Below are positions 2,995 to 45,053 of a stretch of DNA of 64,000 bases, piece by piece. The position numbers were made by a program, and so were the translations under genes. Within the stretch, counting starts at the first letter, position 1, and each line of letters begins with the position of its first letter. The DNA is taken from the sequence record OQ032512.1; one strand, written 5' to 3'. Origin of the DNA: Acinetobacter phage nACB2. The notes below the pieces were generated by a model. That model was not told the origin of the DNA, made no database searches, and saw nothing but the letters and a program-made list of their open reading frames with translations.

Positions 2995-3429
2995 ATGATG
3001 ACCTCTGAAGTCGCAGCTAGTAAAGAGAAAAAATTTGGATTGTTTGATATTCTGAACAATATCAATTCTGGAAAGGATCGCAGCCTATTCTTTCAATCAA
3101 ATTATGAAAAGGAATACAACCCTTTCATGATCAATCGTTCTTTGATGCAGAATCAACGTACAATTATGATTGCTCAGGCAGCTAATCAGGCGGTATTGAT
3201 TGATAAAGAAATGCATCATGATTATATGATGTCAACCATCAAAAAGAACAACTCTCGCGCCAAATGGAAAAAGCGAGATGACAAAAGTGAATACCTTGAA
3301 TGCGTGAAGCAATTCTATAAGGTAAACGAAAAAGTTGCTTTACAATACTTGAAAATCCTTACGATTGACGAATGTAAGGTATTATTAAAAAAGTTTGATA
3401 AAGGCGGTAAAGCTGGACGTGGTAAATGA
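2995..3429 (+). CDS. 62: Probable clamp loader small subunit (gp62 position)
   Basis: Called only by synteny between gp44 and regA. The sequence is divergent. Confidence 0.4.
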   Translation: MMTSEVAASKEKKFGLFDILNNINSGKDRSLFFQSNYEKEYNPFMINRSLMQNQRTIMIAQAANQAVLIDKEMHHDYMMSTIKKNNSRAKWKKRDDKSEYLECVKQFYKVNEKVALQYLKILTIDECKVLLKKFDKGGKAGRGK

Positions 3430-3430
3430 T

Positions 3431-3892
3431 ATGAAAAAATTAGCAGACATTCTTGTAGAACGACCATTGGGTGCAGATATTCTTCCGTACTGCGTGGAGA
3501 TTAACCCTGAAGTTGACGGCAACAATAACTTCAACCGCATTCGTGAAACGTTGAAACGCGTTGGTATTCAAAGCGCTTCTCATTCTAACACACTAAATCA
3601 ATCATGTCATATTTTCTTCCATGAAGGCAAATATTACTTGATGCACTTCTTGATGATGTTTATGTTTGATGGTCATCAGTCTAAACTAGATGAAGATGAC
3701 ATCAAGCGCACTCAATGTGTAGCCTATATGTTAGAGCAATGGGGATTATGCACCATTGTTAATAAAGAAGTTCTTGAAAAACCAAGTGAAGAACGTTTTA
3801 TGCACGGTCTGCGCGTAGTCAAATATCGTGATTCTAACAACTGGACATTCCGTTCTATTTACAAAATGCGCAAGGAAACGCCTAATGGCTGA
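3431..3892 (+). CDS. regA: RegA translational repressor
   Basis: RETLKRVGI...QSCHIFFHEGKYYLMHF...DGHQ...EDD...WGLCTIV aligns with T4 RegA. ATG at 3431 is in frame with the track ORF 3395..3892. Confidence 0.75.
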   Translation: MKKLADILVERPLGADILPYCVEINPEVDGNNNFNRIRETLKRVGIQSASHSNTLNQSCHIFFHEGKYYLMHFLMMFMFDGHQSKLDEDDIKRTQCVAYMLEQWGLCTIVNKEVLEKPSEERFMHGLRVVKYRDSNNWTFRSIYKMRKETPNG

Positions 3893-4778
3893 TTTATATC
3901 AACCGTTGTTACCACGATGGTTAAACTATTGCCACGCCATGGTCACTACGCTTGATTTAGACCCTGTCTATAGTGGCATGCGCGGTGCGTTCTTGTCTCA
4001 AGAGATAACAAGAGACCAATTCGACAACTTCATGGTTAGCTTCGCTCTTTTATATTCTTTAGAAGAAAGCTGTAAGATTGTTGAGATGAATCTTCCTACA
4101 AATGAATTGTGGAAGTATCTCATTGATAACTATGAGACATTGAAGCGCGGACGAGCAAGACGGTTCTTCCGTGAAAAGAAGGGAATGAACTGTCTCAACT
4201 ATCTTGTTGAACATTTTGAAACTTCTACTCAGTTTATTGAAGAAATGTATGATCCATGTTATGAAAAGATGGCTGAGAAGTTTGCTAAAGTTCCATCTTT
4301 TGGTCCATACTTCACTTGGAAGTGGTTAGATTTATATGACCGCGTATACGGTATGGAGTGTAAAATCACTCTAGACTACGCCGTACAAAATCTACCAGGA
4401 GCTCCGATCAAAGGCGCTAAACTAGTGTCTTCAGAACTTTGGCCAGAAGATGAGTTTGAACTCAAACGCGTTCTACAGCATATGATTCAAGAATGTCAAC
4501 GCGTTGGTCTTATGGCACCACCTTCGCTAGACCGTTTGGTAGACATTCAAGAGATTGAGACGTGTTTATGCGGCATTGTACATATGTACAAAGGCACACA
4601 TGTTGATAAAATAGGTAAAGACTTGAGAAGCAAGTATGAAGAGGTCTATAAAGTGGGTAAAACCGCTGGTTGGCTTTTGAAACACATGCCGAGACCTCTA
4701 CCTCATGACATTGAATTTAATGATCCGTACCTGAAAGTTGAAGATTCGTCTTCATCATTCAACCTATTAGACCTGTAG
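3885..4778 (+). CDS. Hypothetical ~300-aa protein, paralog A of 7991..8956; candidate DNA base-modification enzyme (aGPT-Pplase-like?)
   Basis: Shared motif block FGPYFTWKWLDLYD versus WGGFMAYELVTDL. Lies in the hydroxymethylase/kinase neighbourhood. Start taken at MADLYQPLL. Confidence 0.35.
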   Translation: MADLYQPLLPRWLNYCHAMVTTLDLDPVYSGMRGAFLSQEITRDQFDNFMVSFALLYSLEESCKIVEMNLPTNELWKYLIDNYETLKRGRARRFFREKKGMNCLNYLVEHFETSTQFIEEMYDPCYEKMAEKFAKVPSFGPYFTWKWLDLYDRVYGMECKITLDYAVQNLPGAPIKGAKLVSSELWPEDEFELKRVLQHMIQECQRVGLMAPPSLDRLVDIQEIETCLCGIVHMYKGTHVDKIGKDLRSKYEEVYKVGKTAGWLLKHMPRPLPHDIEFNDPYLKVEDSSSSFNLLDL

Positions 4779-4833
4779 ATTATAGGGATAAGACTTGAAG
4801 AAGAAAATATTTCGGAAAAAGTTAAAATTTTTC

Positions 4834-4863
4834 CTTTACTTCTTCAAGTAATAATTCAATAAT
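4834..4863 (+). promoter_or_regulatory. Early promoter CTTTAC-N18-AATAAT (weaker -10)
   Basis: Same architecture as the other early promoters. Confidence 0.35.
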
Positions 4864-4939
4864 AGTAATCATGAAAGGCAAGGTACAAAATCAAAACCAA
4901 GCCTCAATTGATAAATTAACGCTCAACGGAGTAAACCAA

Positions 4940-5635
4940 ATGAAAGCTATTCTTAAACACATCGCGGATTCAACTGTAACTGTTACAATCGACAACCTTA
5001 CTCTTGAAACTTCTAAAGAAGTTGCTAAGACTCTACGTGTAGATAACTCACTAGATATTACTGCTGCGACATTAAATCGCATCATCAAAAACAAAAAATC
5101 TTCTGCTGGTTTCAACCTTGAAGTTGACGGCGAAATGTACCCTTGGTCAGACCGCGATATCAAAGTATTCGGTATCACAGAAGCAATTCAACCTTCTTTC
5201 GAAAATATCTCTCAAATCGTAGCTGAAGAAGCAGTACAACCAGTTGTTGAAGCTGTAGCTGCGGTAGCTGAAGTTATTGTAGAAAAAGAAGAAACTGAAG
5301 ATGCAGATGATCTTACAGCTGGAGAAGGCGTGAACTGGATGCGTCGTAACCCTAAAGGTCCTCAAGAACTTCTGAAAGTTCGTAAAAGCTCAAAAGTTTG
5401 GGAAATTATTGTAGCTCTCAAAAAACGCCGTATGACTCTCAAAGAATTACAAGAAACGTTATATGCTGTTGGTCTTGATGAAGATCAGATTGATGATTAC
5501 AAAGTTATTCAAGCAATGTATGATGTTATGTGGAAAGGTTACAACATCGCTAAAATTACATGTGCAGACGGTGAAGTGCGCTACGCTATCCGTACACTAG
5601 ACTTCAAAAAAGTTGACTCAATCTTAACTTACTAA
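4940..5635 (+). CDS. Hypothetical early protein with an acidic central linker
   Basis: Start chosen at the ATG preceded by the conserved leader CTCAACGGAGTAAACCAA. Confidence 0.5.
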   Translation: MKAILKHIADSTVTVTIDNLTLETSKEVAKTLRVDNSLDITAATLNRIIKNKKSSAGFNLEVDGEMYPWSDRDIKVFGITEAIQPSFENISQIVAEEAVQPVVEAVAAVAEVIVEKEETEDADDLTAGEGVNWMRRNPKGPQELLKVRKSSKVWEIIVALKKRRMTLKELQETLYAVGLDEDQIDDYKVIQAMYDVMWKGYNIAKITCADGEVRYAIRTLDFKKVDSILTY

Positions 5636-5648
5636 TAAACCCATACGG

Positions 5649-5688
5649 AGGGGCGTGAAGTCCCTCAACTTTTATACTACCTTGAGGG
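5649..5688 (+). terminator. Hairpin gaggg/ccctc plus a mutually exclusive ccctcaa/ttgaggg hairpin enclosing TTTTATACTACC
   Basis: Two mutually exclusive stems can be drawn. The T-rich motif is shared with sites at 1843-1853 and 7237-7249. Confidence 0.45.
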
Positions 5689-5695
5689 TTCCGAG

Positions 5696-6043
5696 ATGGA
5701 AATTTTGAATATTGTTGTTTTGGTTGTTTCTTCTTTTTTAATTCTAGTTGGTCTTTTGACTCTTGTATCTTGCTACAAAGAGCGCAAACGCAATAAATAC
5801 CTCACAGAATATAAAGCGCTACAAGAATTGAAGCCTAAACTGGACTACTTCAACATCAAATTGATCGAAGTGTCTGAAGGTCAATACAAATTTGTACAGT
5901 GTGCAAAATCAGGTAAACCAGTTTTCCAAATTCGCAAGCGCGGTAAAGGTGTAGACTTTGTGAAAATGGTTCCAGAATTCCAAGAACACAAAAAGGATGT
6001 TATGTCTGCTAGTCATCTAAACAAGGTGCTTCACGCGAGTTGA
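5696..6043 (+). CDS. Small membrane protein (N-terminal TM helix, basic C-terminus)
   Basis: Hydrophobic N-terminus LNIVVLVVSSFLILVGLLTLV. Confidence 0.5.
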   Translation: MEILNIVVLVVSSFLILVGLLTLVSCYKERKRNKYLTEYKALQELKPKLDYFNIKLIEVSEGQYKFVQCAKSGKPVFQIRKRGKGVDFVKMVPEFQEHKKDVMSASHLNKVLHAS

Positions 6044-6078
6044 TTTTATAAAAAACTTCGAAAAAGTTATATAATACA

Positions 6079-6108
6079 CTTTACTTATGCGGCGAAGTGT
6101 ATTATAAT
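6079..6108 (+). promoter_or_regulatory. Early promoter CTTTAC-N18-TATAAT
   Basis: ctttac 6079-6084, tataat 6103-6108. Confidence 0.55.
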
Positions 6109-6150
6109 TTCTATCATAAGTTCAATATCAACTCAACGGAGTTAACCAAA

Positions 6151-7203
6151 ATGACTATCCACGCTTTTATCTCTTCAGCTTCTTATTTCAATCGTGAAAT
6201 TTCTGGTCAATATGTTGTGGCTGCTAAAGAGCCTAAAGATTCAGAGTGTAAACGAGACTTCTACCTTCGTATTATCCACCCAGATACTCAAAAAGAGTTT
6301 GGTGTACATATCTTTGCAAAAGATGTTATTTTCAAAGATGAAAACGCAAAGACAATCGAACTTCCTTTTGGGCGCGTTCAGAATAAAGGCGCTGAAGACA
6401 ACTCTGTTAGTCAACCAGTTGCTAATCCTATTGTAGAATTGACAGACGAAGAGCTGGATCTATTGATCTACAAGCGCTTCGAGATTATGTCCATGTTGTC
6501 TGATTCTCTGATCAATGGTCATACTCGTTCTTTGATTATTTCTGGCGCTCCTGGTATTTCTAAGACATATACTCTAGAATCTAAGTTGAACGCTGCTCTA
6601 GAAGAATCTTCAATTGAATCATTTGTGCATCTCAAGGGTCGTATCACACCTTTACAACTATTTGTGAAGTTGTTTGAAAATAAAGATGAAGGGCAAGTGT
6701 TATTAATCGATGACGTCAACTTATGGGGTGAAGAGAATTCTGTAGAGATTTTAAAAGCTGCTCTAGACACAGGCGCAAAACGTGAGATCACTTGGGCTTC
6801 TACACTTAAATGGTTGGAAGAGAATGAGATTCCGCAGACATTTGAGTTCAACGGCTCAGTATGTTTCATCACCAATATTGACTTTGACCGAGAAATTAGT
6901 AAGAATAATTCTCAGTCTGTACATCTGAAGGCGTTGATCTCAAGAGCCAACTACCTAGACCTAAAAGTACACTCAAATCGAGAGATTTTAATACGCATCA
7001 AACAGATTGTCAGAGACTCTGAAATTTTGTCTAAAAACGGTCTTAGTCCAGAGCAGGGTGCTCTAATGATCGAATGGTTAGAAAATAACGTGGATAAGTT
7101 GCGTGAAATGTCTCTGCGTACTGTATTGAAGATTGCTTCCTATATGAATACATCCATGGAAGAGTGGGAAACAATTTCTGCCGTCATGTTATTAAAGAAA
7201 TAA
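6151..7203 (+). CDS. P-loop NTPase (Walker A GAPGISKT, Walker B VLLIDD); AAA-like ATPase or candidate DNA 5-hmdU kinase
   Basis: Motifs read from the translation. Start set at the ATG after the conserved leader, not at the track start 6097. Confidence 0.5.
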   Translation: MTIHAFISSASYFNREISGQYVVAAKEPKDSECKRDFYLRIIHPDTQKEFGVHIFAKDVIFKDENAKTIELPFGRVQNKGAEDNSVSQPVANPIVELTDEELDLLIYKRFEIMSMLSDSLINGHTRSLIISGAPGISKTYTLESKLNAALEESSIESFVHLKGRITPLQLFVKLFENKDEGQVLLIDDVNLWGEENSVEILKAALDTGAKREITWASTLKWLEENEIPQTFEFNGSVCFITNIDFDREISKNNSQSVHLKALISRANYLDLKVHSNREILIRIKQIVRDSEILSKNGLSPEQGALMIEWLENNVDKLREMSLRTVLKIASYMNTSMEEWETISAVMLLKK

Positions 7204-7216
7204 GCTACGAGGCGTT

Positions 7217-7249
7217 GAGTGGGCGCTTTCCCACTCATTTTATACTACC
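7217..7249 (+). terminator. Terminator hairpin gagtggg/cccactc followed by ATTTTATACTACC
   Basis: 7-bp stem plus T-tract. Confidence 0.55.
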
Positions 7250-7267
7250 ATCCGAAGGATAAACATT

Positions 7268-7966
7268 ATGCATATCTCAGCTAAATTGAATGCTATGGAA
7301 AAACGAACAATGAGTCAAGTGGACTCTTCAATTGAAGCTATGCGCCAAATATGTTACGCTATAGATAACAATATGGCTTCAGACCTTGTATTGAAAGACA
7401 AAAATATTTCCCTTTTTCGCTGGGTGAATGAAGGCGGAGAAAGTAAGGTCATGAAAATGCTGGGCGATGATAAGATACAGGTTGGTAATGTATTTTCTAC
7501 GCGGTCTAGAGTTATTGTACACGGCGTGAATTGTATGGGTGTAATGGGTGCAGGTATAGCTGCACAGATACGTAGAAACTTTCCAAAAGCACATAGTGAA
7601 TACATTAAGTTTATCAACGAGTGTCGTATTAAACAAGAGTCTCCGTTGGGTAAAGCTCAGTTTGTTGATGTCGGTGGCGGAAATTACATTGTTAACGCCT
7701 TTACCCAAGAGAAAACAGCTAAAAAACAAGGAGATGTGGCCATCTCTTACAGCGCAATATTAATGTGTATGGAAGAGATTAAAGAGACCTGCTACTGTCT
7801 AGGTATTGACCGAATCGCTATGCCTAAAATTGGTTCTGATTTAGGTGGCGGAGATTGGAATATTATACGTTCAATCGTCAACGCTGTTTTTAATGATAGT
7901 CGCGTAGAGGTTACAGTATATGTTCTGCCGTCTACCTTTTTGAAGAATACAGGCACTAAGTTTTAA
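7268..7966 (+). CDS. Macro-domain protein (ADP-ribose binding/hydrolase family)
   Basis: VIVHGVNCMGVMGAGIAAQI matches the macro-domain nucleotide-binding motif (VNAAN...GGGV.GAI). Confidence 0.6.
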   Translation: MHISAKLNAMEKRTMSQVDSSIEAMRQICYAIDNNMASDLVLKDKNISLFRWVNEGGESKVMKMLGDDKIQVGNVFSTRSRVIVHGVNCMGVMGAGIAAQIRRNFPKAHSEYIKFINECRIKQESPLGKAQFVDVGGGNYIVNAFTQEKTAKKQGDVAISYSAILMCMEEIKETCYCLGIDRIAMPKIGSDLGGGDWNIIRSIVNAVFNDSRVEVTVYVLPSTFLKNTGTKF

Positions 7967-7990
7967 AAATCGGGTTTTGGAACATCGCAG

Positions 7991-8956
7991 ATGAATAACA
8001 AACATCTTATAGACATCAAACATGAATATGATTTCGACTTAGGATGGATTCTATATTTTATTGCTGAACGTCAGAGCATAATGCTAAAGAAAAACTCAGG
8101 TCTTCCAAAGTTTGAATGGACTGAAGATGCAATTTTTTCTGAATATCGTTTTTGTAACGTAGATCGAGAAGATGATAGAGTCACCACTTGGTTGAGAGAC
8201 AATATTCGAGAACCATTTGCAGATCACCCCGACCTTTGGCTGATGTTAGCTTTATCTAGATGGATCAACTGGCCACCTATGATTGAAGAATTGGCGAAAA
8301 GTAAATACTGGTTCGGAAAGCCTGAATTTAGTCTTCAAGGTCTAGCGGATACCATGCTTGAACGTCATAAACGCGGTGAAAAGGTGTATACCGCTTCTTA
8401 TATGATCAATACAGAAGGGGATAAGACATCTCCGTATCGCAACAAAACAAAACATGAATTTGTATGTTGTAAAGTGGTGGGTCAACTAATGGCTGATCGA
8501 GACCGTATTGAGAAAGAACTCAGTAGACCAAAATACACTCTAGAAGAAGCTTGTAATCTATTCCAAGAATACTCAAATTGGGGTGGGTTTATGGCTTACG
8601 AATTGGTTACTGATTTGAATCATACGCGGTATCTAGAGAATGCGCCTGATCGTTACACTTGGAGCAATCAAGGTATAGGCGCAAATCGTGGTATGAACCG
8701 ATTGACTGGAGAAACCAAACTTGAGAAAAATTGGGGTCAAGAAGTATGGAATGAATATAGCTTGAAAGTTATCAATGCCGTGCATAAGGCATACGATGAA
8801 GGTTTGATTCCTAATCACCTAATCTCCAAGTCTCAGATAGATGCTAGATGTATCGAGTCAGCTCATTGCGAGATGGACAAATATCTGAGAGTGAAGACTG
8901 GAGAAGGTCGTCCAAGATCAAAATACAATACCCACTCGAAATTTTACGCAGTATAA
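7991..8956 (+). CDS. Hypothetical ~320-aa protein, paralog B of 3885..4778
   Basis: Shared motif block with 3885..4778. Confidence 0.35.
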   Translation: MNNKHLIDIKHEYDFDLGWILYFIAERQSIMLKKNSGLPKFEWTEDAIFSEYRFCNVDREDDRVTTWLRDNIREPFADHPDLWLMLALSRWINWPPMIEELAKSKYWFGKPEFSLQGLADTMLERHKRGEKVYTASYMINTEGDKTSPYRNKTKHEFVCCKVVGQLMADRDRIEKELSRPKYTLEEACNLFQEYSNWGGFMAYELVTDLNHTRYLENAPDRYTWSNQGIGANRGMNRLTGETKLEKNWGQEVWNEYSLKVINAVHKAYDEGLIPNHLISKSQIDARCIESAHCEMDKYLRVKTGEGRPRSKYNTHSKFYAV

Positions 8957-9036
8957 TAAATCTATTTGATTATTACAGATAGTACACCTAATACATTATA
9001 ATATTAGGTGTCAAATGTTTGCTCTAGGAGAAAAAG

Positions 9037-10149
9037 ATGCAACCGCCTATGTTTATTACAGGACTAACAATTAATCAGACTGTTGGACGCGCTATCACCT
9101 CTATTATGCGTATGGGTAAAGAAATTGAAACTCGAAACGGTACAGCCAAATTTCTAAATGATATCACTTTGGAAATTCAAAACCCACGCGAGCGCCACCT
9201 TTCTCTAACTGGACGCAAAAGTAACATCTTCCAATTGATGGCTGAATCTTTTTGGGTTATGGCTGGACAAGATCAAGTTACAGGATTTCTAGAATTTTAT
9301 CTGCCTCGTGCTACAGATTATTCTGATGACGGCGCTCATTGGCACGGAGCTTATGGCCCACGTATATATGATCATGGTCAGATGGATGACTTGATTGAGA
9401 CCTTCCGTTCCGAAGGTAAAAATACACGCCGTGCTATTTTGATGATCGCTAACCCAATGCAAGATAATCTAACGACTATTCAACGCTTGTATGGCGAAGG
9501 TCATAAACCAAAAGACATTCCATGTAACCGCGAAATTCATTTTTATGTTACGGACAATAAGTTGAATTGTAAAGTTATTCAGCGTTCCGGCGATATGATT
9601 TTCGGTACTGGTTCAATCAATCCGTTTGAATTCACCTTCTTACAAGAAATCATCTATCAGCGTCTGTTGAAGTTACAAGGTTTTGAAGACCTAGAATTGG
9701 GTGTATACCGCTGGCACGTTACAAATGCTCATATCTATTCAAATTACTATCTTCAAGCTGAAGATGTAATGAAACACTTCGATGACGATAAAGAGCACGT
9801 TGAAGGTACTTTGCCTGTAGCTTATCCATTTACTAAAGAAATGTTTGCTCATAAGTTGAGTTCCCTGAACGAAATCATCGCTTGTGATAACGTAGAGCAT
9901 CTACGCGCTCTCGTCAACCATTACCCATTTGGTAAGTTCAATGAAATTATTGAATTGTATTATGTTCTAATCAAAGCATATACTTTGGGTAAAAAGATTA
10001 AAGAATTGCTTCCTGATCAGAAATTAGTCTTGAATATCTCTAGTATTCCAGATTCTTTAGCAGCTGCTATCGAAGGCTCAGCCTTCAAAAACTTTGATAT
10101 TAACTATGATACAGAAAGCGTATCTTTCCATCTTGTGGAGACAAAATAA
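9037..10149 (+). CDS. Thymidylate-synthase-family pyrimidine hydroxymethylase (dUMP/dCMP hydroxymethylase-like) with a C-terminal extension
   Basis: RRAILMIANP, PCNREIHFYV and IQRSGDMIFG correspond to the TS motifs RRxIxxxWNP, PCHxxxQFYV and QRSxD. His-to-Asn after the catalytic Cys as in T4 gp42. Confidence 0.7.
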   Translation: MQPPMFITGLTINQTVGRAITSIMRMGKEIETRNGTAKFLNDITLEIQNPRERHLSLTGRKSNIFQLMAESFWVMAGQDQVTGFLEFYLPRATDYSDDGAHWHGAYGPRIYDHGQMDDLIETFRSEGKNTRRAILMIANPMQDNLTTIQRLYGEGHKPKDIPCNREIHFYVTDNKLNCKVIQRSGDMIFGTGSINPFEFTFLQEIIYQRLLKLQGFEDLELGVYRWHVTNAHIYSNYYLQAEDVMKHFDDDKEHVEGTLPVAYPFTKEMFAHKLSSLNEIIACDNVEHLRALVNHYPFGKFNEIIELYYVLIKAYTLGKKIKELLPDQKLVLNISSIPDSLAAAIEGSAFKNFDINYDTESVSFHLVETK

Positions 10150-11321
10150 TGGGTCAACTCATCGTTCTATGCGGTGAACGCGGTGTGGGGAAAGATTTCC
10201 TCACATCAGCTGTAGCTGAACAAATGGCTAAATCTGGTATTAACGTCACACGTCTTTCTTTTAGTGATGAAGTGCGTCGCGTGGCATACGTGTTGTTCCC
10301 ATTTCTAAAGAATGTTTTGAATGACAATAAGAATGACCCAATTATCGGCAACTTAGACAATCCTAAAGAGTTTTCTTGGCGAGATATCATTAAGATGATA
10401 GGAAAGGTCTGTCGAGACGTCGATAGCTCTTATTTCGCCAAACGTTGGTCTGAGAATCAATCTCATCTAGTTCTAGAAAGTCCGTCAAATGATTTATTCT
10501 TCATCACGGATATGCGCACTCAAGATGAATACGATCTATTACGCAAAACAGCTCATACATTTGATAGTATTTTGTTTGTAAAAATTGAATCCGAAACAGG
10601 TTTACCTCCGGATGATTTTGAAAAGTGGACGCGCGAATTTAGTGATTACGACGTTCTGTTTAAGAATCTTCGTGATGAAAAATCTGTGGCTGATTTTATT
10701 AGCGCCTTGAATCTTAATGTTGGGATGCCTACGCGTCTAAACAAAAAGATGCTGAATACAATGTTAGAAATTCAGAATCGCAACAACGCACTCTATCTAG
10801 GAACAACAGACTGGCGTCAAAAGGCTGATCTACACAAATACTGCGCTGCCGCTGAGCGCGAGTTCTCTGAATTTCTAGATGAGATCACTACAGAGTGGGC
10901 TTGGTGGAAGAAAGGTGAACAACAATTTGATGTAAACAAAGCCGTTGTGGAATTTTGTGACTACATCTGCTTTAAGATGTCTGTACTATTGTTGAAATAT
11001 CCAGATTTTCAAGGCGTAAACGATGATGCTTACTTTGAACCGCGCGAAAGTATTAAAAACGTGGGGTTCGCCATTTGGTACGAGACCATCAAAACCAAGG
11101 GTATGTCTTATCTTCAGTATACGCCGTATGTAGCAATGGACTTCCAACGTCTAATGGAAGAAATTAATATCACACTTGATTATTTTAATATTACAGCAGA
11201 ACAGTTTTATAATACTATGTTGCAGGTTCTGGAACGTAATTCAGAACGCGCAGAAAAAATCTCTCAGGGCTTATTAGTAAATAAAGCAGCTGAAAATGAA
11301 ATCACTACGGTAGAGGAATAA
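10149..11321 (+). CDS. Fusion of dNMP kinase (T4 gp1-like) with an all-alpha NTP pyrophosphatase (MazG/gp56-like)
   Basis: N-terminus LIVLCGERGVGKDF resembles T4 gp1 MKLIFLSGVKRSGKDT. C-terminus EFSEFLDEI...VVEFCDYICFKM fits the MazG E-x-x-E / E-x-x-D motif. Confidence 0.6.
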   Translation: MGQLIVLCGERGVGKDFLTSAVAEQMAKSGINVTRLSFSDEVRRVAYVLFPFLKNVLNDNKNDPIIGNLDNPKEFSWRDIIKMIGKVCRDVDSSYFAKRWSENQSHLVLESPSNDLFFITDMRTQDEYDLLRKTAHTFDSILFVKIESETGLPPDDFEKWTREFSDYDVLFKNLRDEKSVADFISALNLNVGMPTRLNKKMLNTMLEIQNRNNALYLGTTDWRQKADLHKYCAAAEREFSEFLDEITTEWAWWKKGEQQFDVNKAVVEFCDYICFKMSVLLLKYPDFQGVNDDAYFEPRESIKNVGFAIWYETIKTKGMSYLQYTPYVAMDFQRLMEEINITLDYFNITAEQFYNTMLQVLERNSERAEKISQGLLVNKAAENEITTVEE

Positions 11322-11323
11322 AC

Positions 11324-12403
11324 ATGTCGTCATTAGCATCACGCCTTATCAAAGCAGCTCCAAAATCAAAAGCATGCATCGTGAACCAAACCGATATTGG
11401 TGAAAAGACCATGTTGGCTAAATACATTATTCCTCTTATGAACCTGATGTTTAGCGGTTCATTCAACGGCGGTCTTTGCTTTGGTATTCATCAGCTTGTA
11501 GGTGACTCGCGTACCTTTAAAACCAACATGGCGGTAATGATGGCCAAAGGTTATATGGATCATAATAAAGATTATGACCCAAATGACTTAGAAAAGCAGC
11601 CTGTTTTAGTTGTATTCGACTCTGAATTTGCAATCCGTCCGACATTGGAACAGTTTGGTATTCCACCTGAGCAAGTCGTATACATTCCATTTGAAAATCT
11701 GGAAGAATTGAAAGAAACACTCACTCAGATTATCCAAGACGTCAAACGCGGTGAAAAGGTATTCTTCCTAATTGATTCAATCTCTCAGGTTGCTTCTATT
11801 AAAGAAGTTGCTGACGCATTGAAAGGTGACGTGAAGGTAGATATGACGCGCGCCAAAGAAATGAACTCTTTGTTCCGTATCATCACTCCTATGTTAGCAA
11901 TTCGCGATCTTCCTCTTGTTGCTATTAACAGCTTCTATGAAGACAATGCTAATCAGTATGCAGACCCAATTATTAAAGGCGGTAAACAGAACTTCCTTTC
12001 ATCCGATATTATTTGGTTTGTTTCTCGTGCCCAAGATAAAGATGATGATGGTTTGAAAGGTTGGTTCTTCAACTATAAAGCCCTGAAACACCGTTTTGTG
12101 AAAGAGAAGTCAGTATTCAAACTACACGTGACATTCGATGGTGGTATTGATTGGGCTTCGGGTTTGATTGAATTAGGCGTTGAATCTAAACTGATCAAAC
12201 AGGCTGGTGCGTGGTATGAATTGGCTGATGAATTAAAAACGCCTAATCTCAGCAAAAAGTTCCAACGCAAGCAAATTGTGAACAAGGGTGAATCTGGTTT
12301 CCTTGAAGCACTTTTAGCGTCACCTAAATTTCATGAATTCTGTGAAGACAAATACCGCCTTGAAAATGGTGAGATGGTATCTGAAGATTTAGTTGAAGCG
12401 TAA
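11324..12403 (+). CDS. uvsX: UvsX recombinase (RecA family)
   Basis: SRLIKA..., LVVFDSEF, GEKVFFLIDSI and MTRAKEMNSLFRIITP align with T4 UvsX. Confidence 0.85.
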   Translation: MSSLASRLIKAAPKSKACIVNQTDIGEKTMLAKYIIPLMNLMFSGSFNGGLCFGIHQLVGDSRTFKTNMAVMMAKGYMDHNKDYDPNDLEKQPVLVVFDSEFAIRPTLEQFGIPPEQVVYIPFENLEELKETLTQIIQDVKRGEKVFFLIDSISQVASIKEVADALKGDVKVDMTRAKEMNSLFRIITPMLAIRDLPLVAINSFYEDNANQYADPIIKGGKQNFLSSDIIWFVSRAQDKDDDGLKGWFFNYKALKHRFVKEKSVFKLHVTFDGGIDWASGLIELGVESKLIKQAGAWYELADELKTPNLSKKFQRKQIVNKGESGFLEALLASPKFHEFCEDKYRLENGEMVSEDLVEA

Positions 12404-13950: not shown

Positions 13951-16900
13951 ATGTCACAAATTTTGCTGGAAGCATTTAATTCCATCCCATACACCACAGA
14001 ACGTACTGAAAAGAATGGTCTGATGGATATCAGCTATACCTTTGAAGATGAAACAAAACACAGTTTCCGTTTCCACTTTGAAAAGCGCGTAAACTACGGT
14101 CGCAACGTATTTGTTCTGACTCTAGGCCAAAAAGCGCCTAACATCAAAATGTACAAGCGTGTATTTGGTAAGTTCCACAACCCATTACGCGTTATTGCTA
14201 CTCTCATTGAAATCATCAAAGACAACCGTCAAAAACGTTCTGATGTGAAAGGTCTTATCATTGAAGTTCCAGCTCAGGCTTTTGGCGCTCACGGTCGTCT
14301 AGTAGACAAAATTGTAAAACGCGAATTGCGTTCAGAACTGAAGGTTCAAGACCTTGATGTTACCATTGAAGAATTTGAAAAACTAGGTCTTCAAGGTATC
14401 ATTGCTACCGTTAAGCCGTACAACTTCGACAGCGTATTCAACGGTAAATTGATGAAGGAGCTGTTGGATAACCGTAGCGCAGATCGGAACGCGCCTGTCG
14501 TTGCTCAAACTGCTAAGAAACAGATTGTAATTGACACAAGATATGACGGCGTTTGGCAAAATGCCAAAAGTTTCAGAGTCTTTGTTTCTACTCTTGAAAA
14601 AGATGAAGGCAAAGGCGTTATTGACGCTCTAGAGAAATGCAACTTCAAATATCTAGGCGACAATCCATTAGCGCATCGTTTGATTTTTGCCTATCCTGGT
14701 GAATACGCAGATAAATTGAATCAAGACCTAAACAAAGCAATTGAACTCGTGAACTCATCTACGGAGTTTGAAGCGTCAATAGGAGAAAAGGAAGTCATAA
14801 TCTCTCATATGTTTAAATACGAAGATAGAGCAGTAGCGTATTTCTCTTCACCAACTGAATTGAAAGTGGCTCAAAAAATTGTTTCGTCTGCTGGTTACGA
14901 AGACATAGAAATTTCTGTTGAGACTTCGAAGTATCGTATGGTTGATACTACCGAAAAATTATCTTGTAAGGAATTCAATGCTTTGCTCTCAACTTTTATC
15001 GGCGACGGCAAAATTATTTCTGAACGCACATCTGAAATAGCTGGCGCAGATGATATTTCTACAGCGGAACAAAAATTCCATCTCGAACATCAAAAGGGTG
15101 GCTTCAAGATTGTAACAACTTCTCCATTAGCTACAATCTTGCTATTGAATGATCTACAATTAGACCTTACTGATAATAAAGATGGTTCTGTTTATGTGAA
15201 GTTGTCTCACTTCAGTAAAACAGTTGGTACTAAAAAGCAAGTTGTTAATGCTCTAACTGCCGCTGGTTATGTTGAAGGTGAGCATGTCGCGACTCCTGGT
15301 TCAGCTGCATCAACTTCGAAGACTAAACTCGATACGTCAGATGTGAAGCCATCTAAGCAATCAATTGATGTACAGATTGAAGATGCTATCGAAGCCAATA
15401 AAGGTCGCGCTGAAGAAGTGTTGAAAGAAAGTTTCAAATATAATACTTCAGGCCATACTGTCGCCAACTATAAGTTCCTACGAGCGGTGCGCCCTAAAGA
15501 CGGATATGTTCTATATGTATTCGAACTTATGGTTTCTCCTAAGTTTGGAAGTCCTGTGAAACAAAAGGCTTTTGTCAAAGGGTATATCGAAACTGACGCT
15601 CTAATTGGTTATACTGGTAGTGGCGCTGAACGCAAACCAGTGATTGCTCCTGTAAGAATATCTATCGACCGAACAGTTACAAGTTGGGTTGGATATGATT
15701 ACGAACCAGATGTTGCTGAGCGCTTCGAAAAGACTATGTCTTTCGATGAACCTAAACCAACATCAATCAACTGGTCTACTGCTGAGACTGCTTTGAAAGG
15801 TCAATACTTCAAAGATAGCAACTACAAAGTTGTTAACATGAAAGTTGATGAGTTGATCTCTAGACAATCGACTGATTTCCGTATTGATGCAGGTAGCAAT
15901 ACAAACCGTATCAAAGGAAGAGCTGAACGCGCTCTGGCGCACATCGCTTCTGGCGCTCCAATGGACATGCCAGTTGTTGATATTGATGCTCAAGGTAATC
16001 TTCAGGTTGTAGATGGTCGTCATCGCATTGCTGTAGCTAAAGAAATGGGTCTGAAAGAGATTCCAGTGTTCTTGAATGATGCTGCTAGAAAACCAAAACT
16101 ATTTAATGATTTGACAATCAAATTGGCGAAACAAGGTAATCTACCGCAAAAAACGATCAATGTGAAAGGAGATGATGTTTTCGTAACAAAATTATCAATG
16201 CCCGGAATGTATAATACTGAAGAACGTAATCTGTCATTCTTAATGGATTCTAATCCGTTATACACTTCTATTGATAATCAGAATGCAGAAGTAAAGCGTC
16301 GCCTACTTCAACTTGTTGGTTCTTCCGCAGAACGAATTAAATCTGCAATTGAAAGTTGGACTGGTGGGCGTATTAAGGTAGAGAGCGTTAGCGGTTCTGG
16401 TGTGAAATCTGAACCTAAAACGGATTTATCTTTCCTTCTTAACAAAGACATCTCTTCAGACGCAGCGGAACCAATCTTGAAATACCTGAAGAAAAATATC
16501 AAAGTTGGTACCAAAAAGTACGAACTAAACAGTGAAAGTGGTGTTAATTATTTGAATAAGATTCTAAACCAATTGGTGAGTCTGATTCCAAATTCTAACG
16601 ACCATTCATTCTCTATTGGCGGAAACATTAACGCTAGAAAGGCAGGCGGTCTAAAAGTTGTTGTAAATGATATGCACAGAGGTGGATATTATGAAGGTAA
16701 TACGCACTTAGCTGTAGCGGTACAAGTTGGCGGAGCGTACACATACGGCATTAATTCTGCAGTTTGTAAGTTCTTGAAAGAGGTATTTGCTAACTTGACT
16801 AATATAGGAGATAGTCTTCCTGAGGGTAGAGTTTTCGACAAACACGGTACCAATTTCTCTACGGTTGGTGTAGCTTATACTGGAAAAGAGTACTATAGCA

Positions 16901-18850: not shown

Positions 18851-18891
18851 TCTAATCATAAGGTTCAATAACACTCAACGGAGTAAATCAA

Positions 18892-19146
18892 ATGACTAAA
18901 CTTACAGAAAATCAAAAAATTGTTTTAAACGCTCTCATTGGTACTCAAACTTTCGCAAATCAACGCTGGACACCAACTTCTACAGTAGCTGAACGTTGCG
19001 GTCTTTCTAAATTGGTAGTTGCTGGCGTTATGTGCTCATTGATTAACAAAGGTTTAGTTGTATCAATGAAGACTAAAGAGGGTTCGGTGTACGAATTCAC
19101 ATTAGATGGTAATGCGACTTTGATTGAGGAATTGTTAAAGGCTTGA
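18892..19146 (+). CDS. Small winged-helix DNA-binding protein (paralog 1)
   Basis: N-terminus MTKLTENQK. The segment SKLVVAGVMCSLINKGLV looks like an HTH. Confidence 0.5.
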   Translation: MTKLTENQKIVLNALIGTQTFANQRWTPTSTVAERCGLSKLVVAGVMCSLINKGLVVSMKTKEGSVYEFTLDGNATLIEELLKA

Positions 19147-19240: not shown

Positions 19241-19281
19241 TCTAATCATAAGGTTCAATATCACTCAACGGAGTAAATCAG

Positions 19282-19587
19282 ATGACTACATTAACAGACA
19301 ACCAAAAATTCCTTTTCAAAACTTTAGCAGTACACTCAGACGGCGTTGAACGCGGAATACTTATTCGAGATATCACAAATCCTGTTGACCTTAACATCAA
19401 AGCATTGGATGTTAAAGAAATATCTGACTTCACAGGTTTTCACCCTGTAGCAATTCGCGGTTTGATCCATAATCTTGAAGTGAAAGGTTTAATAATCGTA
19501 ATCAAAAATCCAAGACGCGGCAATACGCACGTTACATTTACAGATGCTGGTTACGAGTTGGTTAAGAAATACTTCCCTCCAATGTAA
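19282..19587 (+). CDS. Small winged-helix DNA-binding protein (paralog 2)
   Basis: N-terminus MTTLTDNQK is paralogous to 18892..19146. Confidence 0.5.
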   Translation: MTTLTDNQKFLFKTLAVHSDGVERGILIRDITNPVDLNIKALDVKEISDFTGFHPVAIRGLIHNLEVKGLIIVIKNPRRGNTHVTFTDAGYELVKKYFPPM

Positions 19588-41135: not shown

Positions 41136-42615
41136 CTAGAATAGGGAGTCAAGGCTGAACGATGTCGGAGCCTTTGCCTCCCAATTTATTGCTGTTAAAA
41201 AGTTAGTCAAAGGCGAAATGAAGCACTTATTGAATGCTGTTTCTTTATCAATAAACTGATCAAGTTTGAACTCCTTCGGCAATTGATCATCATATGATAT
41301 TACTTCCATACCGAAAGGCGAACCCTTCCGTAATGGTAACACAAAATATTTATTCCCGCTACGAAGTGGCATGATATGTGTCACTTCCAACCGTTTCAAT
41401 AGATTGTTATGGTTCACTGCGCCTTTAACGTGATAAGGTGTACCCTTTACGTAATTACCGCTACTATCTAGATAGTCTTCAATGTTGTTGATATTTTGAG
41501 CAGCGCCGTACTCATTAATATCTCGATCCTTTTTGAAGTCTGTTTCACAAGCGTCAACAAACTGATGCATCTCAGTCATTCGATCATTCAACGCAAATTC
41601 ATAACACTTCTTCATCCAATCTCGACAGAACATTGGGTAGTTTGATTTACGCGCTTCTAAGCCAACAATCTTCAGCTTAGGAGACGCGAATCGAACGCCT
41701 TCATTATCTGTTAATAGCATAGCGTATCTTTTCTTAGTAGTAAAGATGGCAACTGTAGAAATCGCTTCTCGCTTAAAGAAAAGAGCATTGATTGGGCAGT
41801 TATATGAAGCAGCTAGTTCTTCAGCCCATTGGATGAATAGTGGTTCAAGAACGTCTTTAGCGAGTTCATCAAGTTTGTCAGTTTTAGCTTCAACAGACAA
41901 CTTATCCCAACCTTCGGCTTTCACCACTTCTTTAAATTCAACGTACACAGAGTCTGTATCACCGTAGAAACAGTGATCACCTGATAGACCGTATTTGTTA
42001 TTGATCCATTCGTTCAAGCGGAACATGATATGACGCGTTGAACATTGTCCAGCTGTAGTAATTGCTTCTGCAATACGAATATCAAAGTGGTCAGCAAAGT
42101 TTTCATTCGCAATCGCGCCGTAACCAGCGTTGGCAGCAATTTTATGCGAGTGTTGGTTTGAATCGCCGTTCTGAATGATTGTTTCCCATTCATCCTTCTG
42201 CTTATAGAACCCTGCGTCCTTCTCTAGACATTCATCAAGATATTTTTTCTTGATAGATTCTAAAGAGCGTTCATCATTCTTCATTTGACGTTTAATCGCA
42301 GAACGCGTGTCGTACAAGTCTTTGAATACGCGACGTAACAGAGATGGACGCTCAATCTTGAACATGGCTAAGTTTGGAGCCATACAAACTTTAAGGCGCT
42401 TGAGTACTTGGAAATCATATGGGCGTTCAAAATATACATCCCAAATGCCTTGACGAGCACGGAAGCGTTCAGCGTACAAACGTGTATATTTGTCTTGTTG
42501 GTCTTCAGGTAAAGATTCCAATTCTTTTGCTAGTGCATCTAGAATCTGTTCTGTAATAGCCCAAGGAATCAAGGTCTCAACGCCCATATTGAACTGTTGC
42601 GCCATGTGTGGATAT
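41136..42615 (-). CDS. 43: DNA polymerase gp43, exon 2 (motif A YP onward, motif C YGDTDS, C-terminus)
   Basis: YPHMAQQFNMGVETL aligns with T4 gp43 YPSIIRQVNISPETI. YGDTDSVYV present. The first 57 aa of the 549-aa track ORF are intron sequence. Confidence 0.8.
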
Positions 42616-43788
42616 CCTTTATGTTCAGATGAGTTCGTGATTCTCATCCCGGAATTGTATCCAGCTTGTATTCGCATACAAGAGCAGACTATATCATCAC
42701 CCACGTTATACGTTTGGTACGCTGTTGTAACTAGCGCAGATGAGCTATACTCACCGTGTCTCCCGTTTCCAATTAAGCCATACATTTAGGCACCACACTT
42801 GGCTGTACTATGTCTTGCGACTGTCTAGTCGTTGAACCTTTCAGAACTTCTTTGATCTTTAGTGTATACAGTTCTACATCTAAACCTTTTAATTTCAATG
42901 GCTTGACGTAGTTAGATGCTAGTGTTCCGTTTTGGTTGAAGATTGTTTTGCCTTTCGCTTGAGCCTTCAGATAGTAAGCAAACAATTGTTCGTCAGACCA
43001 TCCAATGATTTCAAGTTTCTTGCGTTCAAGACTTTCTTTGAATTTTTGCTTTCCATCTTCTGATTGCATCGGGTTAGATTGTTCAAACCCTTTACCATCT
43101 AGATGATGTTTCAATTCGCCAGAAATATATCTTGGATCATTCTTTTCAGTCATAAATGTATTACCGTCTGAGTCTTTAACAACAACTCGTCCAGTCATGT
43201 ATTCTTGACTACGTTTAGTGATGCTTTTAGCAGTTTCTTCATCAGCCCCAAAGAACTTTTTACCGTTCATATCGGGTCTAGAAACACCGCGTTTAGTCTC
43301 ACTAATCTTCAACTTCACATCTTCGCGCTTAGATGGATTGTTCTCACCTGAGTTCATTACGCTAGCATTCAATCTAGCTTCAACGGTATACTCAGCGCCA
43401 TCTCTAGTTGTTGTCATTAAGTGATACGCAAATCCCATACCTCGAGTTTTTGCGCCTAACATCAATAATCTATGCGCTTCGACGTGTTCTAAAATAGATA
43501 AATCTATCAGATTCCACTTAGCATTTCTGTATTCATAAAAATCGCAGACTGGAAGAATATGATGACACTCTGTTACGCCATAACCTTTAGCAGACAAAAT
43601 GAATTCCACGTACTGTTCTAGTACAGCGTGGTCACCATTCTTGTAAGTCTGTTTCAAAGCATCTAGCATTTGTAAAGCGTTCATATAATTCACCATTCTG
43701 ACTTGGCTGCTGATTGTCTCAGTGAGAGTTCCCAGCAATTAAAGAGATTTTCATTGTATTATTACTAATACAAGCCCCTTATCAGTTA
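42616..43788 (-). mobile_element. Group I self-splicing intron (1173 nt) carrying an HNH homing-endonuclease ORF in P6
   Basis: P1 is exon GCCCU paired with IGS GGGGC, with U.G at the 5' splice site. P2 is UUGUAUUA-GUAA-UAAUACAA. Elements P (AAUUGCUGGGAA), Q (AAUCAGCAG), R (GACUA) and S (GAUAUAGUC, + strand 42687-42695). P9 is cuuguau-GCGA-auacaag. Terminal G at 42616. Splicing joins ...DANAL|YPHM... in frame. Confidence 0.75.
42773..43696 (-). CDS. HNH homing endonuclease (intron-encoded)
   Basis: ECHHILPVCDFYEYRNAKWNLIDLSILEHVEAHRLL. ATG MVNYMNALQ immediately follows element Q. Confidence 0.7.
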   Translation of the reverse strand: MVNYMNALQMLDALKQTYKNGDHAVLEQYVEFILSAKGYGVTECHHILPVCDFYEYRNAKWNLIDLSILEHVEAHRLLMLGAKTRGMGFAYHLMTTTRDGAEYTVEARLNASVMNSGENNPSKREDVKLKISETKRGVSRPDMNGKKFFGADEETAKSITKRSQEYMTGRVVVKDSDGNTFMTEKNDPRYISGELKHHLDGKGFEQSNPMQSEDGKQKFKESLERKKLEIIGWSDEQLFAYYLKAQAKGKTIFNQNGTLASNYVKPLKLKGLDVELYTLKIKEVLKGSTTRQSQDIVQPSVVPKCMA

Positions 43789-45053
43789 AGGGCATTAGCA
43801 TCCACTGAAACCACGTCTTCGTACCGTCCTGGCTTCAAATCTTTAACGTATCCGCCAGCGTAATCAGGCTTAGAATTCACGCGCGCACGAATTTCAGAAT
43901 ATTCTTTGCCGCGTGCTCCATAGCCGTACATCAAGTATTGCCAAGGAAGTACTGTCGCATTTGTGTCGTCTGGATTACAATGGAATAAGAAAGCCAGCGT
44001 ATATGCCAGTTGTAACATCTTAGTCTTTTCGGCAATGCGCTTAACTAAGTTCACGTCATGAATGTTGTATGAGATGTAGTTCTGGAAGTCTTTGTAATAG
44101 AATTCAGTCAGGTTTTTATAATCGCTATGGTCAACCTTTTCTTCACCCAAGAAGTGTTTTGCGGCTGTGTTTAGCTTTTTGTTATCCAATTCTACAAAGG
44201 CGTGTTTGTCAACGATGTCTTTCAAATCGAGGTTGCTGATACCTGCAATGTTGAAAGTCACTTCTTCGCCATAAGGTCCTTGGAAGGTACGCTTGCGCAC
44301 GTAATCTAGTGGAGAAATGCGTTTGAGCTGATCTCGTCCAAGAAGGGCGTCAATACGGTTACAGAAATATGCAATATCAAACGTGTCGCTGTTCCACCCT
44401 GAAATATAGTTGTATTCGGCATCTGCGAAATGATCAACAAAATCTGCAAGTAAGTCTAGCTCAGAGTCATAACCAACATATTCAATTTGTTCTGGCGTGA
44501 TATGTTTAGCTACTTCAGGCGGTAACTTTTCTACATCGAAAGTACCAATATATTCGCCCTTGAACGTCTCAAGACCAAATACAAAGAATTTATTTGTAAA
44601 TGTGTCATAAACCGTGATGGCTGTGACTTCGTATTGAGCTAGAGCAGGCTCAGGGAATGGGCCACTAAAGATAACGCCTTTTGCGTCTTTATAACCAGAC
44701 TCAACCTCAATATCCAGAAGCGCGCCGCGGATATGTTTCATATCAAACGTAATCTGCTTTTCAGGATAACGTTCAGCCACATATTGAGCTAGAGGGTTGT
44801 CAATGCCGTAGATTTTGTAGTTAGGAACGTTCTTCATTTCATCTAACCATTGATCCATGGCATAGATGTTATCAAAAGTCACAGCCTGTAAGGGTAGACC
44901 ACCTAGAGAACGGTGTTCAGATTCTTGATCTTGAGATGGTACAAATAACTTGGGCTTGAAATGAATTTCTGAAGTACCACGTACGCCATTTTCTACGTAG
45001 CGCTCAATGATTTTTTCTTTATGCTTGGTTAGTGAAGTGTAAAAACGAGACAT
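43789..45053 (-). CDS. 43: DNA polymerase gp43, exon 1 (3'-5' exonuclease domain through the start of motif A)
   Basis: Exo I FDIEV. Ends ...VSVDANAL, equivalent to T4 ...MSFDLTSL. Confidence 0.8.

Follow-up and report, generated by a model that had tools for sequence, protein, structure and literature searches.

Full replacement of thymine (T) by 5-hydroxymethyldeoxyuridine (5-hmdU) at replication has been described for the phages phiW-14, SP10, ViI and M6. Amino-acid-derived hypermodified thymidines are known from ViI (5-NeOmdU), M6 (5-NedU) and PaMx11 (5-AcNmdU) (Lee et al., 2018, 2021), and an alpha-putrescinylthymine (putT) system has been described in the Delftia phage phiW-14, which encodes a putrescine:DNA transferase (gp109), a 5-hmdU DNA kinase (5-HMUDK; gp37) and a clade-1 Pplase (gp72). 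In the virion DNA of Acinetobacter phage SH-Ab 15599, alpha-1,3-diaminopropanylthymine (dapT) is found at ~23% of T, mainly at TG sites (Li et al., NAR 2026, PMC13458397). Here, we analyse a block of genes at positions 3885-11321 of a 64,000-nucleotide stretch (nt 1-64000, hereafter the window) of the genome of Acinetobacter phage nACB2 (OQ032512, 136,560 bp, host A. halotolerans; nACB2 genome paper). With a probability of about 0.8, judging from its sequence, this block represents the window-resident part of a thymine hypermodification pathway of the phiW-14/SH-Ab 15599 type, with dapT as the probable product. An initial annotation of the window had proposed a thymidine hypermodification module, proceeding through 5-hmdU, within a T4-like replication block, and both the family matches and the collinearity with SH-Ab 15599 described below bear this out.

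The Pplase2 protein of SH-Ab 15599 is a metal-dependent diamine:DNA transferase (DADT) that acts on DNA containing 5-PmdU; C226 is the catalytic residue, D25, E222 and T223 are involved in metal binding, M18, G227, H230, D238 and D243 belong to the donor pocket, and the G227K/D238Y double mutant switches to glycine (PMC13458397). The SH-Ab gp18 protein hydrolyses dTTP and dUTP, but not 5hmdUTP, and DctD, the hydroxymethylase (HMase), the dTTPase, the 5-HMUDK and Pplase2 together suffice for the formation of dapT in Escherichia coli, whereas the same reconstitution without supplied 1,3-diaminopropane yields putT (PMC13458397). The Discussion of that paper considers nACB2, the Pplase2 of which is 49% identical to that of SH-Ab 15599, a likely dapT phage. 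Because nACB2 has been described there as a phage of the same organization that probably carries dapT (PMC13458397), the nACB2 dapT pathway is already known as a prediction.

Genomic setting of the nACB2 locus

The block is bordered by regA on the left and by uvsX on the right (Table 1), which is where the initial annotation had located it; gp41 also belongs to the flanking genes, and regA overlaps the start of gp5 by 8 nt. All eight open reading frames (ORFs) singled out in that annotation appear in the window ORF list on the + strand, with coordinates unchanged, and the hydroxymethylase motifs that it reported are present as well. The table of coding sequences (CDSs) published for nACB2 matches the window ORFs exactly at 1,922-2,890, 2,995-3,429, 6,151-7,203, 7,268-7,966, 7,991-8,956, 9,037-10,149, 10,149-11,321 and 11,324-12,403, and the G+C content of the window agrees with the published value.

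In protein searches, SH-Ab 15599 is by far the closest relative of the window, which is collinear with the 1.5-65.7 kb region of that genome at protein identities of 34-84%, and each gene of the block has an ortholog there. A BLASTn comparison of the window with SH-Ab 15599 yielded 55% coverage and 69.5% identity, compared to 52% and 72.8% published for nACB2, and megablast of positions 3885-11321 against the phage collection, which lacks the nACB2 record itself, gave no match. Three short metagenomic contigs, L008 (ERR13714843), L009 (SRR25820363) and L010 (SRR19631088), encode Pplase2 proteins that are, respectively, 99%, 71% and 58% identical to that of the window, indicating that the phage lineage has at least three further uncultured members. 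The L008 and L009 contigs share the left-hand portion of the arrangement (clamp-loader genes, regA and Pplase2); L010 displays the whole order from regA through uvsX, with the Macro slot occupied too. In the database searched, the Pplase2 sub-clade consists of these three contigs and SH-Ab 15599 only.

A predicted diamine:DNA transferase

The gp5 protein matches the amino acid:DNA transferase (ADDT) family (PF18724, formerly aGPT-Pplase2) with 34.4 bits (cut-off 26.2; E 2.5e-8) and PHROG 6364 (E 5e-43), and its sequence also matches the solved Pplase2 structures 8Z2M (E 1.3e-9) and 25QC. It is 50% identical to the Pplase2 of SH-Ab 15599 and 35% identical to the phiW-14 putrescine transferase gp109. 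In the alignment, all 12 residues named as functional or pocket residues in the 15599 enzyme are kept in gp5: M19, D26, Y57, A91, Y142 and E225 correspond to M18, D25, Y54, A88, Y139 and E222, and T226, C229, G230, H233, D241 and D246 to T223, C226, G227, H230, D238 and D243, respectively. The catalytic C229 and the metal ligands D26, E225 and T226 are invariant in six aligned sequences, and G230, H233, D241 and D246 reproduce the diamine-type pocket. In the M6 enzyme, which uses glycine, positions 227 and 230 are instead occupied by K and S. The two residues specific to the 15599 enzyme, M18 and A88, are also present in gp5, whereas I and E are found in these positions in the phiW-14 enzyme, the donor of which is putrescine. 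Taken together, these similarities suggest that gp5 would convert 5-PmdU in DNA into a diamine-substituted thymine, predicted to be dapT.

In the published nACB2 annotation, the transferase gene starts at 3,978 and encodes a protein of 267 amino acids (aa). However, the ATG at 3885 is preceded by an AAGGAA Shine-Dalgarno sequence 7 nt upstream, whereas no such sequence was found before the ATG at 3978, and initiation at 3885 extends the protein by 31 conserved residues, among them the counterparts of M18 and D25 in SH-Ab Pplase2. Translation from 3,978 would thus remove the conserved N-terminus that holds M19 and D26. Given the extra conserved residues and the AAGGAA site, the deposited CDS (3978-4778) is probably truncated. 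The truncated gene model, along with the labelling of most of these genes as hypothetical in the published annotation, might be taken to signify that the module is partly decayed or rewired in nACB2, so that virion DNA would contain 5-hmdU or plain T but no hypermodified base. Among the readings considered here, this appears to be the least probable, given that all ORFs are intact, that the catalytic, metal and pocket residues are conserved, that full-length gp5 has a good Shine-Dalgarno sequence and that the layout is conserved in the three further metagenomic lineages, which argues for purifying selection.

Predicted enzymes of nucleotide metabolism

The gp11 protein matches the Thymidylat_synt family (PF00303) with 52.9 bits (cut-off 24.3) and PHROG 3676 with an E-value of 1.9e-89, and is 57% identical to the SH-Ab 15599 HMase employed in the published reconstitution. 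It contains the motifs RRAILMIANP at residue 131, PCN with Cys163, and QRSGD at residue 182, and Cys163 is aligned with the catalytic Cys of E. coli thymidylate synthase (TS). The position that governs base specificity is occupied by Asn195, as in the ViI, M6 and SH-Ab enzymes, whereas the CMP hydroxymethylase MilA has Asp. Because one HMMER alignment of gp11 to E. coli TS shifts the Asn195 segment by four residues, this assignment rests on the alignments with MilA and the phage enzymes. The Asn points to a dUMP-type enzyme, rather than to the plain dCMP hydroxymethylase that the initial annotation had named as the outcome that would speak against its interpretation. That annotation was accurate in describing a TS-family hydroxymethylase with a C-terminal extension of about 100 aa, and the extension is usual for the phage family (346 aa in ViI, 351 aa in M6 and 375 aa in SH-Ab for the full-length proteins).

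In gp12, counterparts of the ViI dnk product and of the ViI NTP-pyrophosphatase are joined in one protein. Residues 3-172 match the dNMP kinases of PHROG 139 (E 1.1e-20), with weak Pfam matches to P-mevalo_kinase and DNMK, and this domain, the Walker A motif of which reads GERGVGKD (residues 9-16), aligns lengthwise with the product of the separate ViI dnk gene. The domain would phosphorylate 5-hmdUMP. We also considered it as a candidate 5-HMUDK, which was rejected because it shows no similarity to M6 gp54 and matches dNMP kinases and ViI dnk instead. Residues 191-370 match the NTP pyrophosphohydrolases of PHROG 173 and are closest to the dimeric all-alpha dUTPases (PDB 1OGK, E 1.7e-6), not to MazG proper. 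This C-terminal domain is 50% identical to SH-Ab gp18, and the published determinants of dTTPase specificity, Q13, N17, Y35 and W56, are kept as Q209, N213, Y231 and W252; PF08761 matches the SH-Ab and L010 orthologs, but not gp12 of the window. The domain is predicted to remove dTTP and to recycle dUTP to dUMP. Thus, of the kinase::MazG-type fusion previously proposed for this gene, the fusion itself and its membership in the pathway are upheld, the SH-Ab gp18 ortholog being a proven dTTPase/dUTPase, whereas the MazG label gives way to that of a dimeric dUTPase.

The 5-hmdU DNA kinase

This kinase activity has been proven for M6 gp54, ViI gp67 and gp243, phiW-14 gp37 and SP10 gp186N, all of which are small P-loop proteins of the PF18748 family (Lee et al., 2021). 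The product of these kinases is the monophosphate 5-PmdU (Lee et al., 2021), which replaces the 5-PPmdU intermediate assumed in the initial annotation. The same annotation had tentatively assigned the kinase activity to the P-loop NTPase gp8. Instead, gp8 belongs to the T4 NrdC.10 family, and its only Pfam matches are sub-threshold ones to AAA_16/nSTAND3. A tblastn search detected homologs in 1,308 phage records, mostly from T-even phages and other T4-likes, the carriers including T2 and RB51 (nrdC.10), which are hydroxymethylcytosine phages, as well as Acinetobacter T4-likes and jumbo phages. The gp8 protein is 35-38% identical to NrdC.10 of T2, RB51 and other T-evens across 98% of its length. 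The NrdC.10 family differs from the 5-HMUDKs in that it does not belong to PF18748 and has no known link to base modification. Indeed, gp8 has no match to PF18748 (HMUDK_HMUD1), whereas M6 gp54 scores E 7.7e-18 in the same library, and BLASTP of gp8 against M6 gp54 yields an E-value of 0.038 over 57 residues that lie outside the P-loop. Gp8 was accordingly rejected as the 5-hmdU DNA kinase, because it belongs to NrdC.10, a family not confined to 5-hmdU phages, lacks a PF18748 match and shows no similarity to M6 gp54, ViI gp67 or the SH-Ab protein AXF41517. Although gp8 lies inside the interval, there is no evidence linking it to the pathway.

Searches of the whole window with M6 gp54, ViI gp67 and AXF41517 (tblastn and phmmer --max) and with a Walker A regular expression recovered no such kinase. 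In SH-Ab 15599, the homolog of M6 gp54 is AXF41517 (E 2e-7), which is encoded at 111.6 kb, adjoining the deaminase gene. According to the published table, the kinase homolog of nACB2, gp136, maps to 104,478-105,287 and is 54% identical to AXF41517, and the dCMP deaminase gp134 maps to 103,848-104,270 and is 55% identical to the SH-Ab deaminase. Both genes lie outside the window, so that the 8-kb gene set, previously presented as complete, lacks two components.

These observations bear directly on the possibility that the 8-kb block is self-contained, with gp8 serving as the 5-hmdU DNA kinase, both Pplase paralogs decorating DNA, and the Macro-domain and HU-like proteins contributing to the pathway. 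Such an arrangement could account for the fact that gp8 is the best-conserved gene of the block (72% identity to SH-Ab) and keeps its place in the metagenomic relatives, and it has a partial precedent in SP10, the kinase of which carries a fused clade-1 Pplase domain, with no clade-2 gene having been found in that phage. Nevertheless, it is highly improbable: most of the phages that carry NrdC.10 homologs do not make hmU, gp8 resembles none of the proven kinases, and a separate M6 gp54 homolog exists in both SH-Ab 15599 and nACB2. Furthermore, the clade-1 protein is dispensable in the M6 and ViI reconstitutions and was not part of that of SH-Ab, and neither the Macro-domain nor the HU-like protein has a documented role. 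A pathway of the phiW-14/SH-Ab 15599 type, with only some of its genes in the window, is more compatible with these data.

The clade-1 paralog

Profile searches assign 3885-4778 to clade 2 and 7991-8956 to clade 1 of the aGPT-Pplases, in both cases above the cut-offs, and thereby confirm that the block encodes a pair of such proteins, as initially suspected; however, only clade 2 decorates DNA in the characterized systems. The clade-1 protein gp10 matches PF18723 (HMUDK_hel, formerly aGPT-Pplase clade 1) with 140.7 bits (cut-off 25). It is the second-best conserved protein of the block and has 368 homologs; an exact-protein look-up returned no match. Its residues C293, E294, D296, K297 and R300 are invariant in a 35-sequence alignment. 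The helix-hairpin-helix glycosylase-like fold common to clade 2 is present in gp10. Pairwise and profile comparisons of gp10 with clade 2 were not significant, and the sole segment aligned by hhalign pairs IESAHC with the catalytic IETxLC motif.

Despite the name HMUDK_hel, gp10 contains no Walker A motif and was rejected as a kinase candidate, given that Table 1 of Lee et al. (2021) and PF18748 place the kinase in a separate P-loop family. The name of PF18723 derives from the helical domain that is fused to the kinase in gp186 of SP10, a fusion found in SP10 only. The clade-1 proteins M6 gp55 and ViI gp160 are dispensable for hypermodification in vitro, and the SH-Ab 15599 reconstitution worked without the clade-1 Pplase (PMC13458397). 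A clade-1 Pplase accompanies every known thymidine-hypermodifying phage and yet is dispensable for hypermodification. There is a slim chance that gp10 is a Cys-dependent DNA base-modifying enzyme in its own right, which would, for example, convert residual 5-PmdU in DNA to T, an activity that has long been missing, or install a second, undetected group. The conversion to T would cover ~77% of the T sites of SH-Ab 15599 if 5-hmdU replaces all T.

Homologs of PF18723 with 40-42% identity are also encoded in temperate prophages on bacterial contigs of 228-722 kb (8001-8906 in L011/L012, 6556-7437 in L013 and 6439-7320 in L014), where they adjoin integrase, RecT and terminase genes. Within 8 kb of these prophage genes, we found no hydroxymethylase, P-loop kinase or Pplase2, which argues against a role strictly tied to 5-PmdU. 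The function of the PF18723 family may be independent of 5-hmdU hypermodification.

Proposed pathway and its product

In the pathway that we propose, the dCMP deaminase gp134 would supply dUMP, which gp11 would hydroxymethylate to 5-hmdUMP, and the kinase domain of gp12 would phosphorylate the latter. Hydrolysis of dTTP and dUTP by the C-terminal domain of gp12 would lead the phage polymerase to incorporate 5-hmdU instead of T. After replication, the P-loop kinase gp136 would generate 5-PmdU in DNA, and gp5, relying on Cys229 and on a divalent metal coordinated by D26, E225 and T226, would eliminate the phosphate and add a diamine from the host. The diamine is most likely 1,3-diaminopropane, in which case the product would be dapT, mainly at TG sites, and would shield the DNA from restriction enzymes. 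When 24 additional ORFs of the window, the majority of them located at 31-64 kb, were compared with Pfam, no pyridoxal phosphate (PLP)-dependent, radical S-adenosylmethionine (radical-SAM), flavin adenine dinucleotide (FAD)-dependent or acetyltransferase tailoring enzymes were detected; this survey covered roughly half of the ORFs with 90 aa or more in that interval, and many of the others are small. The result fits a diamine transfer in a single direct step, as known from phiW-14 and SH-Ab. Accordingly, among the published phages that the initial annotation took as models, phiW-14, with its diamine transfer, remains appropriate, whereas the amino acid transfer of ViI and M6 does not.

Several points weigh against this reconstruction. 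The activities have been demonstrated only for the SH-Ab 15599 orthologs, and the roles suggested for the nACB2 proteins are derived from orthology, synteny and residue conservation; gp5, in particular, is just 50% identical to the characterized enzyme. The putative kinase and deaminase, gp136 and gp134, are located outside the window and were placed from the published table. No accession is provided in the paper for the 15599 5-HMUDK, which we infer to be AXF41517, a protein that does not match PF18748 at E <= 0.01. Phosphorylation of 5-hmdUMP has been assigned to host kinases (NAR 2026; PMC13458397), and the kinase role of gp12 proposed here is deduced from its family matches. Finally, the 15599 Pplase2 is promiscuous in vitro, accepting C2-C6 diamines and histamine (PMC13458397). 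This promiscuity and the formation of putT when 1,3-diaminopropane is not supplied imply that the product depends on the host pool.

The last point opens the possibility that the same pathway operates in nACB2 with another product, gp5 installing putrescine, cadaverine, 1,2-diaminoethane or histamine in A. halotolerans to yield putT or a new aminoalkyl-thymine. In addition to the broad donor range of the 15599 enzyme, the many non-pocket differences between the two transferases and the different, halotolerant host species of nACB2 are in line with this possibility. However, all named pocket residues of gp5 match those of the 15599 enzyme, including the counterparts of M18 and A88 that separate it from the phiW-14 putrescine enzyme, and we regard another product as unlikely. 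Hence, dapT is retained here as the probable product.

Other genes in the window

Table 1. Genes of the nACB2 block, its borders and further loci of the window discussed in the text
Feature	Coordinates	Strand	Family or match
regA translational repressor, left border	3431..3892 (3395-3892 in profile search)	+	PF01818, E 1e-26
gp5, aGPT-Pplase clade 2 / ADDT-family diamine:DNA transferase (DADT), predicted	3885..4778	+	PF18724
gp8, T4 NrdC.10-family P-loop NTPase (GAPGISKT, LLIDD)	6151..7203	+	PHROG 1250, unknown function
gp9, Macro-domain protein (Tk.4-like, TARG1/YmdB-type)	7268..7966	+	PF01661
gp10, aGPT-Pplase clade 1, helix-hairpin-helix glycosylase-like, no P-loop	7991..8956	+	PF18723 HMUDK_hel
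gp11, TS-family dUMP hydroxymethylase, predicted 5-hmdUMP producer	9037..10149	+	PF00303, PHROG 3676
gp12 N-terminal domain, dNMP-kinase-like P-loop	10149..10733	+	PHROG 139 dNMP kinase
gp12 C-terminal domain, dimeric-dUTPase-like, predicted dTTPase/dUTPase	10734..11321	+	PHROG 173
UvsX recombinase, right border	11324..12403	+	69% identity to SH-Ab UvsX; weak RecA_C match
HU-like gene	37867-38142		PHROG 379, E 4.7e-29
Split T4-type DNA polymerase (halves 43782-45053 and 41136-42785)	41136..45053	-	

The Macro domain of gp9, correctly recognized in the initial annotation, is supported by matches to PF01661 (E 5e-10; 39.8 bits, cut-off 22), PHROG 335 and the PDB entries 2AFC, 5M3I and 4J5R. The protein is 34% identical to SH-Ab gp13, annotated as RB43 Tk.4-like, and is syntenic in the relatives. 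Its proposed membership in the pathway is not supported, because a link between gp9 and hypermodification is not documented; gp8 and gp9 are general T4-like accessory genes that happen to sit in the block. The HU-like gene is likewise real and has a conserved counterpart in SH-Ab 15599, which is 59% identical and annotated as HU-beta, but the suggestion that it fits the pathway, made by reference to TF1, is an analogy, and nothing links HU to the pathway.

A 321-aa ORF (42773-43738) without a Pfam match separates the two halves of the T4-type DNA polymerase and shares 13 nt with the downstream half. The arrangement is the same in SH-Ab 15599, where two CDSs annotated as DNA polymerase are 71-79% identical to the halves and the middle ORF is 75% identical. 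If the pathway runs as in SH-Ab 15599, this polymerase would have to accept 5-hmdUTP.

Two terminator-like hairpins with T-rich tails are found in intergenic positions on the + strand, at 5648-5666 and 7216-7237, following the ORF 4871-5635 and the NrdC.10-like ORF, respectively, and a sigma-70-like site (10/12 match) is located at 6080-6108, upstream of the latter ORF. These elements suggest that the 8-kb block is probably not one transcription unit. The promoter scan yielded 29 sites compared to 29.1 expected from shuffles, so that the overall counts are not above chance, and no tRNA genes were detected in the window.

Just 3' of gp41, positions 13951-17232 encode a 1,093-aa protein without a Pfam match that contains a weak ParB-like segment (residues 635-717; PHROG 1033, E 1.8e-4) and resembles its SH-Ab counterpart in the first ~190 residues only. 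ParB-like proteins have recently been tied to phage T-hypermodification clusters (PMC13229309). The adjacent small ORFs 18862-19143 and 19252-19584 both resemble a single SH-Ab 15599 gene at 86.8 kb, with 46% and 27% identity, respectively, pointing to duplication or relocation at this site, where the collinearity with SH-Ab, strict elsewhere, is interrupted. The gene at 31270-32361, on the - strand, directly follows the major capsid gene, which is on the opposite strand, and encodes a protein of 363 aa containing a GIY-YIG nuclease domain of the LEM-3-like type (E 7.7e-10); the SH-Ab counterpart is 32% identical and has the opposite relative orientation.

Comparison with known systems

As a discovery, the nACB2 locus carries little weight, given that the pathway has been solved in a sister phage and that dapT in nACB2 was proposed in the same 2026 paper. 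Its value is rather one of annotation. The nACB2 record labels all these genes hypothetical except for that of the HMase and truncates the transferase gene, and the Pfam name HMUDK_hel invites mislabelling of gp10 as the kinase, the real one being encoded 100 kb away. Beyond annotation, nACB2 offers a second, 50%-diverged diamine:DNA transferase that could be used to probe pocket residues and host polyamine pools against modification, and provides a clean background in which to address the role of the conserved clade-1 paralog.

The closest parallel is SH-Ab 15599, in which the genes follow the same order, namely, regA, Pplase2/DADT, two small ORFs, the NrdC.10-like gene, Macro, Pplase1, the dUMP HMase, the kinase::dTTPase/dUTPase fusion, uvsX and gp41; in each of the two genomes, the kinase and the deaminase are encoded at a distance of ~100 kb. 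Every functional residue published for the DADT and the dTTPase is kept in nACB2, and the two phages share the host genus, the G+C content and the fraction of T in the TG context, with values of 21.9% for the window and 22.7% for SH-Ab (where 23% of T is modified). By contrast, the identities between the proteins of the block are just 34-72% (50% for the DADT), nACB2 lacks counterparts of two small ORFs of SH-Ab, 6500-6676 and 8574-8924, and the hosts are A. baumannii and A. halotolerans, respectively.

The phiW-14 enzyme falls into the same Pplase2 sub-cluster (35% identity) and has the diamine-type pocket G227, H230, D238 and D243. The two phages also belong to the same virion lineage, with major capsid proteins 59% identical, and the modified base of phiW-14 is formed by direct diamine transfer without tailoring enzymes. 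The differences lie in I18 and E88, in place of the M and A of nACB2 and 15599, in the use of putrescine as the donor and in the location of the phiW-14 genes, which are scattered rather than clustered between regA and uvsX.

ViI, M6 and PaMx11 share with the predicted nACB2 pathway the dUMP HMase, dTTP depletion, 5-hmdU DNA, a P-loop 5-HMUDK, 5-PmdU and a Cys-dependent Pplase2 transferase, as well as the presence of the clade-1 paralog. However, the transferases of these phages use glycine or serine as donors (the M6 enzyme having K227 and S230), and tailoring by PLP, radical-SAM, FAD or acetyltransferase enzymes is required. The order of the HMase, dnk, NTP-pyrophosphatase, uvsX and gp41 genes in ViI is that of nACB2, but the ViI kinase gene gp67 is located directly upstream of the HMase gene, where nACB2 has the clade-1 Pplase, and dnk and the NTP-pyrophosphatase are encoded by separate genes, which are fused in nACB2.

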